Source: an uncultured Actinomycetes bacterium | GTDB taxonomy: Bacteria > Actinomycetota > UBA4738 > HRBIN12 | DNA length: 64,000 bases | NCBI GenBank assembly: GCA_964447335.1 | Contig: CAYUSA010000001.1 | Span: 63,091-127,090 of the forward strand | Direction of reading: 5' to 3' | Part shown: positions 59,892 to 64,000 of the stretch, piece after piece | Numbering within the stretch: the first letter of the stretch is position 1 | Layout of the letters: every line of letters begins with the position of its first letter | Translations under genes and position numbers: made by a program | Notes under the pieces: generated by a model | Seen by the model: only the letters and a program-made list of their open reading frames with translations | What the model was told of the DNA's origin: nothing | Databases searched by the model: none

Positions 59892-61472
59892 ATGCGCAAC
59901 CTCGACTCGCGCCGGCTCGCGCTCCTCGCCATGTCGCTCGTGGCGGCGGTCGCACTCGCGGCGTCGCCCGCCGGGGCGTTGAGCCCGTCCGAGGCCGACG
60001 CGCGCCTGCGGACCTCGGCGCCGATGGCCCGACGGGTCGTCACGGCTCCCGGCCTGGATCGCCACGCGACGTCCCAGATCCGCCCGGCGGCCGAGGCGAG
60101 CTCCCGCACGACGTTCCGCGGCATCGACCCGACGACCGTCTTCTCGTTCGACGCGATCGGGCGGATCGGCGGCAACTGGCCGGCCGATCCGACTGGCGCC
60201 GTCAGCGACACCTGGTACTTCACCGCCGTGAACACGCACTACGCCCTCTACGACCTCACGGGAGCGGAGACCCTCGGGCCGACGTCGTTCGCCGGAGTGT
60301 TCGACCTGCCTGCCGGCACGCAGGTGTTCGATCCCAAGGTCGTGTACGACCCGTACGGCGACACGTTCGTCCTCGCGTTCCTCGGCGTGAACGACGCGCA
60401 GCAGCGGTCGTGGATCCTCGTGGTCACGATCCCCGACGCGACCGCGGACCAGCGCTCGACGTGGTGCGGGACCAGGATCGGCGGCGACCGCACGAGCGGC
60501 GACGGCAAGCAGTGGCCCGACTACCCCGGCCTCGGGTTCAGCGGGGATCGCGTCACGATCTCGACGAACCAGTTCGACTTCTCCGGCGGGGCTTTCGCCT
60601 CGGCCCAGATCCTGTCCTTCCCGAAGGACAACCTGTACGACTGCTCCCGGGAGGTCTCGTTCGACACCTTCGCCGGCTCCGACACGCGGAACCCGAGCGG
60701 CACGCAGGCCTTCACGATCCTGCCGGCGATCTCCGCGGGCTCCCCGCCCGGGTCGCAGTTCCTCGTCTCGCTCTACGAGGGCAAGCCGGCGAGCCTTGTG
60801 GTGTGGCGCATCAAGCCCTCGGCGGACGGCGCGTCGCTGAAGCGCGCGGCGCTCCCGCTCGGCGGGAAGGTGTCGATCGCGCCGTACGGCACCCAGTGCG
60901 ACGGCAGCCTCCAGCGCTCGGACACGTGGTGGGACCCTGGCGACCTGCGGTTCGTGACCGCGTTCTACGACGCCGATCGTGAGCGGCTGTTCGCCGCCCA
61001 CCCGATCGCGAAGGACATCGGGCCGGACCCGCAGACCGGTGGGTACGTCGAATCCGTGATCCGGTGGTACGACGTGCGGCTGGCCACGAAGCTGGCCGGC
61101 TCGGACATCATGCGGCGCGGGGTCATCGGCGAGCCCGAGTCCGACGTCGGGTGGCCGGCACTCGCGACGGACGTCGACGGGAACCTCATCGTCGCGTACA
61201 GCCAGGCGAGCGCGCCGAACGACGAGTGCCTCTCGGCGCGAGCGGCGCAGGTCCTGCACGAGCGGACCGCCGCCTCGACGGTGCTGCTCGTCCCGGGGGA
61301 GGCGCGGACGGAGGCCATCAAGGGTCCCGAACGCTGGGGCGACTACGCTGCGGCGGTGCGAGACCCCGTCGACGGCACCCGCGTGGTGCTGATCGATCAG
61401 TACGCGGCGGCCGACGGCGGGCAGACCACGATCGACTGGCAGCAGGTCGTGTACGTGCTCACCGCCGGCTGA
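59892..61472 (+). CDS. secreted hypothetical protein (signal peptide, beta-rich)
   Basis: ATG at 59892, a signal peptide (LALLAMSLVAAVALAASPAGA), and 527 aa with no recognised catalytic motif. Confidence 0.6.
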   Translation: MRNLDSRRLALLAMSLVAAVALAASPAGALSPSEADARLRTSAPMARRVVTAPGLDRHATSQIRPAAEASSRTTFRGIDPTTVFSFDAIGRIGGNWPADPTGAVSDTWYFTAVNTHYALYDLTGAETLGPTSFAGVFDLPAGTQVFDPKVVYDPYGDTFVLAFLGVNDAQQRSWILVVTIPDATADQRSTWCGTRIGGDRTSGDGKQWPDYPGLGFSGDRVTISTNQFDFSGGAFASAQILSFPKDNLYDCSREVSFDTFAGSDTRNPSGTQAFTILPAISAGSPPGSQFLVSLYEGKPASLVVWRIKPSADGASLKRAALPLGGKVSIAPYGTQCDGSLQRSDTWWDPGDLRFVTAFYDADRERLFAAHPIAKDIGPDPQTGGYVESVIRWYDVRLATKLAGSDIMRRGVIGEPESDVGWPALATDVDGNLIVAYSQASAPNDECLSARAAQVLHERTAASTVLLVPGEARTEAIKGPERWGDYAAAVRDPVDGTRVVLIDQYAAADGGQTTIDWQQVVYVLTAG

Positions 61473-61507
61473 CGGACGCCCGGCGGCGACGGGTATCCTT
61501 CCAGCCC

Positions 61508-63217
61508 ATGCGACTGTCCGAACTGTTCGTCCCCACGCTCCGCGAAGATCCGGCCGAGGCCGAAGCCGTAAGTCACCGGCTGCTGCTCCGCGGGGGATTC
61601 GTCCGGCAGCTGGCGTCGGGGATCTACACGACGCTGCCGCTCGGCGTCCGCACGATGCGCAAGATCGAGACCATCGTGCGCGAGGAGATGGACGCCTCGG
61701 GCGCGCAGGAGATCCGCATGCCCATCACGCTCCCCGCCGAGGCGTGGAAGGCCTCGGGCCGCTGGGACCTCTACGGCGACCTGCTGTTCCGCTTCACCGA
61801 CCGTCACGGCCGCGAGATGCTCCTCGGCCCGACGCAGGAAGAGGTCGTGACACCGCTCGTCGCGGGGGACCTGCCCTCGTACCGCGACCTTCCCGTCAAC
61901 CTGTACCAGGTCGAGTGGAAGTACCGGGACGAGTTCCGCCCACGGTTCGGCCTGCTCCGCGTCCGCGAGTTCCTGATGAAGGACGCGTACTCGTTCGATC
62001 GCGACGAGCCCGGCATGGCGCGCTCGTACGACGTGATGTACGGCGCGTACCAGCGCATCTTCGATCGGTGCGGCCTCCGGTACGTGATCGTCGAGGCCGA
62101 CCCGGGTCAGATCGGGGGCGGGATCAACCACGAGTTCATGGCGCCGGCCGAGATCGGGGAGGACCTGTTCGTCGAGTGCGAGAACGGCGACTACCTCGCC
62201 GACACCGAGGCCGCCCGTCCCGCGGCCCCCGAGCCGGCCGACCCGACCGACCTCGCGCCCCTCGAGATGCTCGACACGCCCGACACGCCGGCGATCGAGT
62301 CGCTCGCGGCGCTCCTGGACGTCCCCGCGTCACGGACGCTGAAGTGCATCCTGTTCGACGCCGGCGGGCAGACGCTCGCCGTGCTCGTCCCCGGCGACCG
62401 CGAGGTGAACGAGCCGAAGCTCGAGCGCCTGTTCTTCCCGACGCCGGTGCGGGCGTTCGAGGACGCGGACTTCGCCGCTCGGGGCTTCGTGAAGGGCTAC
62501 GTCGGGCCGCAGGCCATGTCCGCCGACGCCGTGGTCCTCGCCGACCACTCGGTGCTCGGCGGCCGGGACTGGGTGACCGGGGCGAACGAGGTCGACCACC
62601 ACGTGTGCGGCGCGAACACGCCGCGCGATTTCCGCGTCGACCGATACGAGGACCTCGTGCAGATCCGCGAGGGTGACCGCTGCCCGAACGACAGCGGCGA
62701 GCTCCGCGTCGGGCGCTCGATCGTGGTCGGGCACATCTACCAGCTCCACACGAAGTACTCGGAGCCGCTGCAGGCGCGCTTCGTTGACGAGGACGGCACC
62801 GAGCGCCTGTACCAGATGGGCTCCTACGGCATCGGTATCTCGCGCATCATGGCCGCCGCCGCCGAGCAGTTCCACGACGACGCCGGCCTCGCGTGGCCGA
62901 AAGCCCTCGCCCCCTTCGAGGTGGTCGTGGTCGTCGCGACCCGGGACCACGAGCGGGCGGTCGCCGAGGCCGAGCGCATCTACAAGGAGCTCCGCGAGCG
63001 CGGCGTCGCCGCGGTGATCGACGACCGCGAGCAGACGGCCGGCGTGAAGTTCGCCGATGCCGACCTCGTCGGGTACCCGGTGCAGGTCGTGATCGGCAAG
63101 CGCGGCATCGAGGCCGGCACCGCCGACCTGAAGCTCCGCGCGACCGGGGAGCGCTCGCAGGTGCCGCTCGCTGTGGCCACCGATGCCGCGCTGGACCTCC
63201 TCGCGTCCGCGCCGTAG
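61508..63217 (+). CDS. proS: prolyl-tRNA synthetase
   Basis: Class II aminoacyl-tRNA synthetase motifs with a bacterial-type insertion domain. The start was chosen at the internal ATG of the ORF-track frame. Confidence 0.9.
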   Translation: MRLSELFVPTLREDPAEAEAVSHRLLLRGGFVRQLASGIYTTLPLGVRTMRKIETIVREEMDASGAQEIRMPITLPAEAWKASGRWDLYGDLLFRFTDRHGREMLLGPTQEEVVTPLVAGDLPSYRDLPVNLYQVEWKYRDEFRPRFGLLRVREFLMKDAYSFDRDEPGMARSYDVMYGAYQRIFDRCGLRYVIVEADPGQIGGGINHEFMAPAEIGEDLFVECENGDYLADTEAARPAAPEPADPTDLAPLEMLDTPDTPAIESLAALLDVPASRTLKCILFDAGGQTLAVLVPGDREVNEPKLERLFFPTPVRAFEDADFAARGFVKGYVGPQAMSADAVVLADHSVLGGRDWVTGANEVDHHVCGANTPRDFRVDRYEDLVQIREGDRCPNDSGELRVGRSIVVGHIYQLHTKYSEPLQARFVDEDGTERLYQMGSYGIGISRIMAAAAEQFHDDAGLAWPKALAPFEVVVVVATRDHERAVAEAERIYKELRERGVAAVIDDREQTAGVKFADADLVGYPVQVVIGKRGIEAGTADLKLRATGERSQVPLAVATDAALDLLASAP

Positions 63218-63226
63218 TCTCCGGCC

Positions 63227-63508
63227 GTGATCGCGCGCCCCCCCGGTCGACTCCAGGACTTCGTGAAGCTCCGCCCCGAGGTCGAGGCCGTCCTGCAGCA
63301 CGTCGGACGCGAGACCTGGGACCTCGTCCTCATCGACCTCGACGGCACCTGGATCCGCGAGGAGTTCCCCTCGAGCGAGACCGCCGAGGCCGCCTGCGGG
63401 GTGCTCGGCGTGCGTCTGCACGCCGGGTGGGACGATCCGAGGATGGCCCGGCGCATGAACGCCCGCGACCATTGGAGCACTCCGGGTGGCCAGCGTCGGG
63501 CCCTCTGA
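63227..63508 (+). CDS. small hypothetical protein
   Basis: 93-aa ORF with a GTG start and third-position GC bias. No homolog recognised. Confidence 0.4.
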   Translation: MIARPPGRLQDFVKLRPEVEAVLQHVGRETWDLVLIDLDGTWIREEFPSSETAEAACGVLGVRLHAGWDDPRMARRMNARDHWSTPGGQRRAL

Positions 63509-63580
63509 GCAGCGGTTCCACTCCCGATCGGGCGCCGCTCCGCTATACTGAACACGTCAACGGAGCGGTTTCACCCCCGG

Positions 63581-63607
63581 AAGTGGGCTCGCGCCCACTT
63601 TCTTTTT
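63581..63607 (+). terminator. intrinsic terminator / leader attenuator hairpin (AAGTGGGC-TCGC-GCCCACTT + TCTTTTT)
   Basis: A perfect 8-bp GC-rich stem with a 4-nt loop and a T-tract, which is rare in this GC-rich sequence. It lies 13 bp upstream of rimP. Confidence 0.6.
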
Positions 63608-63620
63608 CGAGGGACGGAGC

Positions 63621-64000
63621 ATGGACGTCGAGGCACTGGTCGGGCCGGTGGTCGAGGCGTCCGGGCTGGAGCTGTGGCAGGTCTCGTTCCGCGGGGAGGG
63701 CGGACGGAGCGTCCTGCGGGTCTCGGTCGACCGCGAGGGCGGCGTCGACATCGACGCGATCGCGGAGGTCTCCGAGCGCCTGTCCAGGCGCCTCGACCTC
63801 GAGGACTTCGGGCCTCGCGGCTACACGCTCGAGGTGAGCTCCCCGGGGCTCGAGCGGCCGCTCCGGACGCCGCGCCACTTCGAGCGCAGCGTCGGGCAGC
63901 AGGTGAAGGTGAAGACGGTGGAGCCGATCGACGGCTCCAAGGTGCACGAGGGCGCGCTGGTCTCGGCCGATGCGGAGGCGATCGTGGTCGCATCCGCCGG
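63621..64000 (+). CDS. rimP: ribosome maturation factor RimP (5' part; runs off the window's right edge)
   Basis: MDVEALVGPVVEASGLELWQV...YTLEVSSPGLERPL. Confidence 0.85.
   Translation, partial: MDVEALVGPVVEASGLELWQVSFRGEGGRSVLRVSVDREGGVDIDAIAEVSERLSRRLDLEDFGPRGYTLEVSSPGLERPLRTPRHFERSVGQQVKVKTVEPIDGSKVHEGALVSADAEAIVVASA

Follow-up and report, generated by a model that had tools for sequence, protein, structure and literature searches.

A rimP-leader-type hairpin as a probable transcription attenuator before the rimP-nusA-infB operon of an uncultured high-G+C Actinomycetota lineage

The rimP-leader family and the locus in the window

In a survey of 302 genomes, the rimP-leader was reported as the most ubiquitous attenuator (Naville & Gautheret 2010, Genome Biol 11:R97; PMC2965389). 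It stands before the rimP-nusA-infB operon in most bacteria and amounts to the terminator itself, a short motif with an unusually conserved GGGc(...)gCCC stem seen in no other 5′ or 3′ terminator (PMC2965389). The stem is accompanied by a U-stretch, the motif lies 4-130 nt before rimP, an antiterminator is not visible, and NusA was proposed as the likeliest effector (PMC2965389). The 2010 list contains one actinobacterial rimP-leader, that of Rubrobacter xylanophilus, located 13 nt before the gene.

Regulation in the leader of this operon has been described in several species. In Bacillus subtilis, NusA-stimulated leader termination autoregulates NusA, according to the summaries of Mondal 2016 given in PMC12288461 and PMC6200986. 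The 5′ UTR of the Streptococcus agalactiae rimP operon gives rise to short and long RNAs from one start, with termination 31 nt downstream (PMC4448216). In Escherichia coli, feedback by NusA on metY-nusA-infB (Bylund 2011, as cited in PMC4448216) and repression by NusA of its own operon (Plumbridge 1985, as cited in PMC2965389) have been reported. The B. subtilis ylxS(rimP)-nusA and S. agalactiae gbs0413 leaders resemble the element described below in that an intrinsic terminator occupies the 5′ leader of the same operon. Those two cases are experimentally supported, whereas our element is known from sequence alone; the B. subtilis leader is also longer, at 180 nt (PMC2965389). In E. coli the tRNA gene metY precedes the leader, which carries two tandem terminators, whereas here proS and a small ORF precede a single one.

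We analyzed a 64-kb stretch of DNA (hereafter the window; 71.4% G+C) that ends inside rimP. The features of the intergenic region and its borders are as follows.

63263-63508, + strand: small ORF in the proS-rimP gap, 81 aa according to the gene call for contig L070 of the same genome
63535-63568, + strand: hairpin 1, arms 63535-63542 and 63561-63568, spanning the predicted −10
63539-63549, + strand: predicted promoter −10 region, TCCGC then TATACT (63544-63549)
63556-63578, + strand: predicted start (about G63556) and unstructured 5′ leader (alignment A2)
63579-63602, + strand: terminator hairpin GGAAGUGGGC-UCGC-GCCCACUUUC, with the invariant core GUGGGC (63583-63588) and GCCCAC (63593-63598)
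63599-63607, + strand: U-tract UUUCUUUUU, whose first three U overlap the stem base and which is interrupted by one C
63611-63619, + strand: Shine-Dalgarno-like GGGACGGAG, inside the 13 nt between U-tract and ATG
63621-64000, + strand: rimP, running past the window end, with Pfam RimP_N and RimP_C and an ATG at 63621

Upstream of the small ORF and rimP, proS ends at 63217. The longest version of the small ORF starts with a GTG at 63227 and ends at 63508, which leaves 71 nt between its stop and the terminator hairpin; a Pfam search of the ORF at 63263-63508 matched no family. The first gene of the rimP-nusA-(ylxR)-infB operon is rimP. Two Logan contigs from the same genome (L070 and L071) carry exact copies of the last 600 nt of the window, and on both rimP and the following gene share 4 nt; this second gene is nusA (matches to NusA_N, S1 and KH_5). 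At the related locus L004 the gene order is rimP, nusA, ylxR (DUF448), infB.

The small ORF and its surroundings show two further regularities. Most related loci have its C-terminal end, ...DHW(N/S)TP.GQRRAL, ahead of the rimP-leader, and some lack it, e.g. L048, L055 and L062-L064. A motif, CTGASCWGCGG(n)TTCSGG, located at 63505-63515 in the window, overlaps or just follows the small-ORF stop and is conserved in many of the 68 related loci described below, at a variable distance of 0-35 nt from the TATACT hexamer. We rejected CTGASCWGCGG as a repeated promoter or operator element, as the window contains 6 one-mismatch matches against 10.9 expected.

Comparison with the published family places the element within it. 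The window locus has the operon-head position, a GGGc(...)gCCC hairpin, a U-stretch and a gap of 13 nt to rimP, and it shares with the published leaders the absence of an antiterminator or larger sensor structure and the rimP-specific stem signature. As in the rimP-leaders of Naville & Gautheret 2010, the 5′ arm of a single terminator hairpin is rich in G and the 3′ arm rich in C. The stems published for deltaproteobacterial, cyanobacterial and clostridial rimP-leaders are nearly identical to that of the window: those of Anaeromyxobacter (GAAAGTGGGCCGCGGTCGCCCACTTTTTC; fuller, GAAAGTGGGCCGCGGTCGCCCACTTTTTCTTTTTT), Nostoc (GGAAGTGGGTTAATGCCCACTTTTTTT) and Syntrophomonas (AAAGTGGGTACCTGCCCACTTTTTC) are almost the same, and 40 published leaders from outside the Actinobacteria have the consensus AGAGTGGGC-n5-GCCCACTTTTTT. 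We built a covariance model, R1, on these 40 leaders, which come from Chlorobi, Proteobacteria, Cyanobacteria, Clostridia and Bacilli. Its best match in the window is the leader (63572-63609, + strand) with 17.6 bits and a rough E of 0.15, a value that is not significant alone, since the model is short and has AT-rich flanks. With filters off and E ≤ 10 over the whole window, R1 matched the leader and its reverse complement only. On this sequence comparison, the element appears to be the actinobacterial form of the rimP-leader, a family already described and not a new one; what is new here is the copy in an uncultured high-G+C Actinomycetota lineage. Compared with the general rimP-leader, its core is extended to GUGGGC/GCCCAC, its U-tract is interrupted by a C, and its hairpin is preceded by an additional 5′ segment, ACGGAGCGGUUUCACCC, whose conservation is specific to the lineage.

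Searches against Rfam gave no match, either for the whole window at the gathering threshold or for 600 nt at E ≤ 10, and thus no riboswitch, T-box or leader family was matched at the locus. This silence is explained by the scope of RF01770, which models solely the gammaproteobacterial two-hairpin version. The operon concerned is the same, and the second of the RF01770 hairpins, CUGGGCU...GCCCUUUUUUU, shows the same general motif. The model differs in spanning 102 nt and including a further terminator upstream, CCCCG...CGGGG, as well as conserved flanking sequence, whereas the window has one terminator. As a control, the E. coli leader scored 102 bits against RF01770 (gathering score 47). The general single-hairpin rimP-leader is without an Rfam model and hence goes unannotated in most phyla.

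Terminator, predicted promoter and 5′ segment among related loci

The initial annotation of this region had described two consecutive hairpins upstream of rimP, and both are present, each folding beyond its dinucleotide shuffles. The second one reads in DNA GGAAGTGGGC-TCGC-GCCCACTTTC (63579-63602) followed by the tail TTTCTTTTT, with T5 at 63603-63607; its folding energy is −15.9 kcal/mol (z = −4.9). Several points made about it were borne out. Between the last T of the tract (63607) and the rimP ATG (63621) there are 13 nt, as had been noted, which leaves no room for a promoter downstream of the terminator. The U-tract had been called exceptional at about 70% G+C, and it is indeed the only run of T5/A5 or longer on either strand of the window. 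A simple consensus scanner found a single terminator-like site in 60000-64000, namely hairpin 2 with its U-tract. Similarly, 378 kb of related loci contain 54 T5/A5 runs, 53 of which are the U-tract of the rimP-leader. This near-absence of A/T homopolymer runs suggests that the lineage hardly uses canonical intrinsic terminators elsewhere.

We then compared the locus with its relatives. Homologues of the partial RimP number in the thousands, and those nearest to it come from uncultured Actinomycetota MAGs. Retaining one genome per species yielded 68 loci (L001-L068) with RimP 40-88% identical, 63 of which had enough upstream sequence; together with the window they make 64 sequences. Each of the 63 loci carries exactly one copy of the leader, immediately ahead of rimP and on its strand, in the shared order TATA[CG]T, 21-32 nt, NNNGTGGGC, a 3-6-nt loop, GCCCACNNN and a T-rich tail. 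The core GTGGGC-N3-6-GCCCAC is present in all 63, as is the tail, with variants such as CTTTTT, TTCTTT, TGTTTT and similar. This constancy, together with the match to the published rimP-leader, favors the proposal already made from the window that a terminator at the head of the rimP-nusA operon, crossed by read-through, would act as an attenuator.

The alignment of the 63 sequences supports an RNA helix. The stem is paired in 96.8% of its cells. Six pairs, GUGGGC/GCCCAC, are invariant, the pair next to this core covaries (AU 55, CG 5, GC 2), and two pairs further down the stem include G-U wobbles (GU 56 and GU 10). Because of these wobbles at the stem base, the pairing is kept solely in RNA of the rimP strand. 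The RNAalifold consensus structure of the same alignment consists of the terminator helix alone.

The other hairpin fared differently. Hairpin 1 is formed in the window by CCGCTCCG (63535-63542) pairing with CGGAGCGG (63561-63568), with TATACT (63544-63549) in the loop, and has a folding energy of −15.5 kcal/mol (z = −3.2 against dinucleotide shuffles). Across the 64 loci its 5′ arm is not conserved, the longest stem at the equivalent position averages 5.5 bp against 5.3 bp in shuffled sequences, and a 9-bp stem occurs only in the window and its closest relative (L006). Hairpin 1 was therefore rejected as a conserved RNA structure, and the idea of a structured leader with two hairpins in succession is not supported, the hexamer in its loop being better read as a putative −10 element.

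The hexamer itself is nearly invariant: 63 of the 64 sequences read TATACT and one reads TATAGT. A G at −2 before it is found in 63 of 64, with T-C-S-G-S as the pre-hexamer consensus, and no conserved −35 element was detected among the 64 aligned sequences. The window contains a single GSTATACT, where 0.09 would be expected. Its distance to the hairpin ranges from 21 to 32 nt in the 63 related loci and is mostly 26-31 nt, whereas the end of the scored 9-nt tail is separated from the provisional rimP start, which in relatives is taken from the tblastn match, by 8-87 nt. Such near-fixed spacing on one side and variable distance on the other indicate that the hairpin is coupled to the upstream hexamer and not to the ribosome-binding site. 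At the Shine-Dalgarno position of GGGACGGAG, relatives have GAGGGG or GAAGGGG. Many published rimP-leaders have a −10-like TATAAT or TATACT similarly far upstream, for instance those of Syntrophomonas, Enterococcus, Streptococcus pneumoniae, Staphylococcus and Rubrobacter. Given the conservation of the hexamer, its fixed spacing to the terminator and the mere 13 nt from terminator to start codon, TATACT is best read as the putative −10 of the operon promoter. The transcript would then start at about G63556, the seventh nucleotide after the −10. Hairpin 1 straddles the hexamer and is probably outside the leader RNA made from the TATACT promoter; it is a local feature overlying the predicted promoter and not a conserved leader structure.

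Between the predicted start and the terminator lies a lineage-conserved sequence, ACGGAGCGGTTTCACCC, at 63560-63576. This segment (ACGGAGCGGUUUCACCC) is retained where the flanking intergenic DNA diverges (alignment A2), and RNAalifold found no conserved pairing in this 5′ segment in the 63-sequence alignment. Distant members (L037, L052-L055, L058, L062-L064) and the metagenome matches lack the segment and have the hairpin and its link to rimP. The segment could be a protein-binding site. Its resemblance to BoxA-like or BoxC-like Nus-factor sites, as defined by the E. coli and M. tuberculosis consensus sequences, is weak, and part of it would fall upstream of the predicted start. At the position equivalent to 63560-63576, the published Rubrobacter rimP-leader also has ACGGAGC.

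Two other roles for the 5′ part of the leader were tried and rejected. Antiterminator pairing of UUCAC in the 5′ segment with GUGGG in the terminator arm, or of GAGC with the GCUC loop, was no better than in shuffled sequences, native 5′ segments pairing with this arm a little less well than their shuffled versions (mean z = +0.84). For nascent leaders folded up to the loop the mean energy was −7.7 kcal/mol, whereas the full terminator reached about −19 kcal/mol. The GTG in the stem was also considered as the start of a leader peptide or of an N-terminal RimP extension, and this was discarded because the frame relative to the rimP start differs among loci and the leader has 1-2-nt indels.

Proposed attenuation mechanism and candidate effectors

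We consider it very likely that this promoter-proximal intrinsic terminator is a transcription attenuator of the rimP-nusA-(ylxR)-infB operon. Within this model we infer the promoter, the start site, termination in vivo and its efficiency, and the identity of the effector. RNA polymerase would initiate a few bases past the TATACT −10, at about G63556, and transcribe an unstructured leader of some 22 nt, followed by the GGAAGUGGGC-UCGC-GCCCACUUUC hairpin and the C-interrupted U-tract. At about 63603-63607, either an RNA of about 50 nt would be released or the polymerase would read through into rimP-nusA-infB, the rimP ribosome-binding site and ATG coming 13 nt after the U-tract. Since no alternative antiterminator pairing was found, the ratio of termination to read-through would depend on a protein that acts either on the elongation complex or on the conserved stem. 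Judging from B. subtilis and E. coli, this protein would most likely be NusA itself, encoded by the second gene: a rise in NusA would increase termination and lower the operon mRNA, closing a negative feedback loop. Transcripts coming from proS or the small ORF would be stopped at this terminator as well.

NusA-dependent terminators in B. subtilis tend to be weak. With mycobacterial RNA polymerase, the sole actinobacterial RNA polymerase tested in vitro, NusG and not NusA stimulated termination at imperfect terminators (PMC3993855). The strength of the hairpin (−15.9 kcal/mol) and this mycobacterial result make it possible that termination here is largely factor-independent, or that NusG plays a role. 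Furthermore, the invariant sequence of the stem is not accounted for by the known general mode of action of NusA. One explanation would be that the stem and the 5′ segment ACGGAGCGGUUUCACCC form a joint sequence-specific site for NusA S1/KH or for another operon product (RimP, IF2). We regard such a site as unlikely; if it existed, the element would act as a dedicated riboregulator and not as a generic terminator stimulated by a factor, and the freezing of the stem across phyla would be explained.

A lineage of 71% G+C that is nearly without canonical terminators and still keeps one before its NusA operon implies that its RNA polymerase would recognize hairpin-plus-U-tract signals, and that dosage control of NusA and IF2 through premature termination may be under strong selection. 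The finding opens no new kind of biology.

Occurrence in metagenomes and rival explanations

Scanning metagenome contigs for AGTGGGC-N4-GCCCACTTTNTTTT returned at least 120 stretches, on contigs of 33-73% G+C. Among the 120 matches listed, a frame-independent search detected RimP within 800 nt downstream at 111 sites, and two of the nine sites without RimP have less than 131 nt of downstream sequence. The first downstream ORFs of the listed matches were RimP_N in 103 of 117 cases and NusA in 2. Since RimP lies downstream at so many of the listed sites, the hairpin sequence appears to be near-diagnostic for the rimP operon across bacteria. This has a practical value for annotation: RF01770 covers the gammaproteobacterial form alone, so that pipelines miss the attenuator in most phyla, and the 63-sequence alignment together with the metagenome matches, at least 120 in number, could seed a general rimP-leader model.

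The same observations bear on explanations other than attenuation. The hairpin and U-tract could be a plain 3′ terminator of the proS/small-ORF unit, without any regulation of rimP. They lie just 71 nt past the small-ORF stop and would end any upstream transcript, and with canonical terminators so rare in the lineage, one might persist at an operon boundary. A terminator serving only the upstream unit is nevertheless highly improbable, given the near-invariant −10-like hexamer that stands between the ORF stop and the hairpin, 26-31 nt from the latter, and given that no promoter room is left past the terminator, so that rimP transcripts must cross the hairpin. The hairpin moreover tracks rimP and not its upstream neighbor: several loci without the small-ORF end retain the leader, the upstream gene in E. 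coli is a tRNA, and RimP is downstream at 111 of the 120 listed metagenome sites. We also find it very unlikely, if somewhat less so, that the promoter, the transcript of about 50 nt and the terminator form an independent small RNA gene in which ACGGAGCGGUUUCACCC acts in trans and rimP expression is leakage. Distant members lack the 5′ segment and have the hairpin and the rimP link, and a second copy or a target is not evident, even though the segment is conserved, unlike the flanking intergenic DNA, and predicted to be unstructured, and although S. agalactiae accumulates a short non-coding form of the equivalent leader (PMC4448216). A small RNA would in any case be compatible with a function in cis, rimP having no other promoter within reach.

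A protein recognizing the DNA was weighed as well. The 16-bp core is a perfect palindrome of invariant sequence, which is unusual for a mere terminator, and on that account GTGGGC-N4-GCCCAC might not be an RNA hairpin but the operator of a dimeric transcription factor that works as a roadblock or repressor. The G-U wobbles and the AU/CG/GC compensatory changes, however, preserve pairing in RNA and on one strand only; a strand-specific U-tract always follows the hairpin in the 63 relatives; and the core is shared across phyla from 33% to 73% G+C, a distribution more in keeping with a universal partner, for instance RNA polymerase or NusA, than with a repressor confined to one lineage. We therefore attach hardly any credence to an operator, and a transcription attenuator remains our preferred reading.

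A few metagenome matches have particular arrangements. One contig (L141) has the hairpin twice, at a spacing of about 700 nt (1479-1503 and 2174-2198), with the second copy at the contig end, and may contain an assembly repeat. On a contig of 33% G+C (L106, 5229-5260), RimP was not detected downstream, and the palindrome is flanked by A- and T-tracts, so that both strands match. On two others (L128 and L162), the first long ORF past the hairpin and U-tract is NusA (499 and 422 aa), with no rimP in between, which indicates that the leader can directly precede nusA; these two loci were assigned by ORF length.
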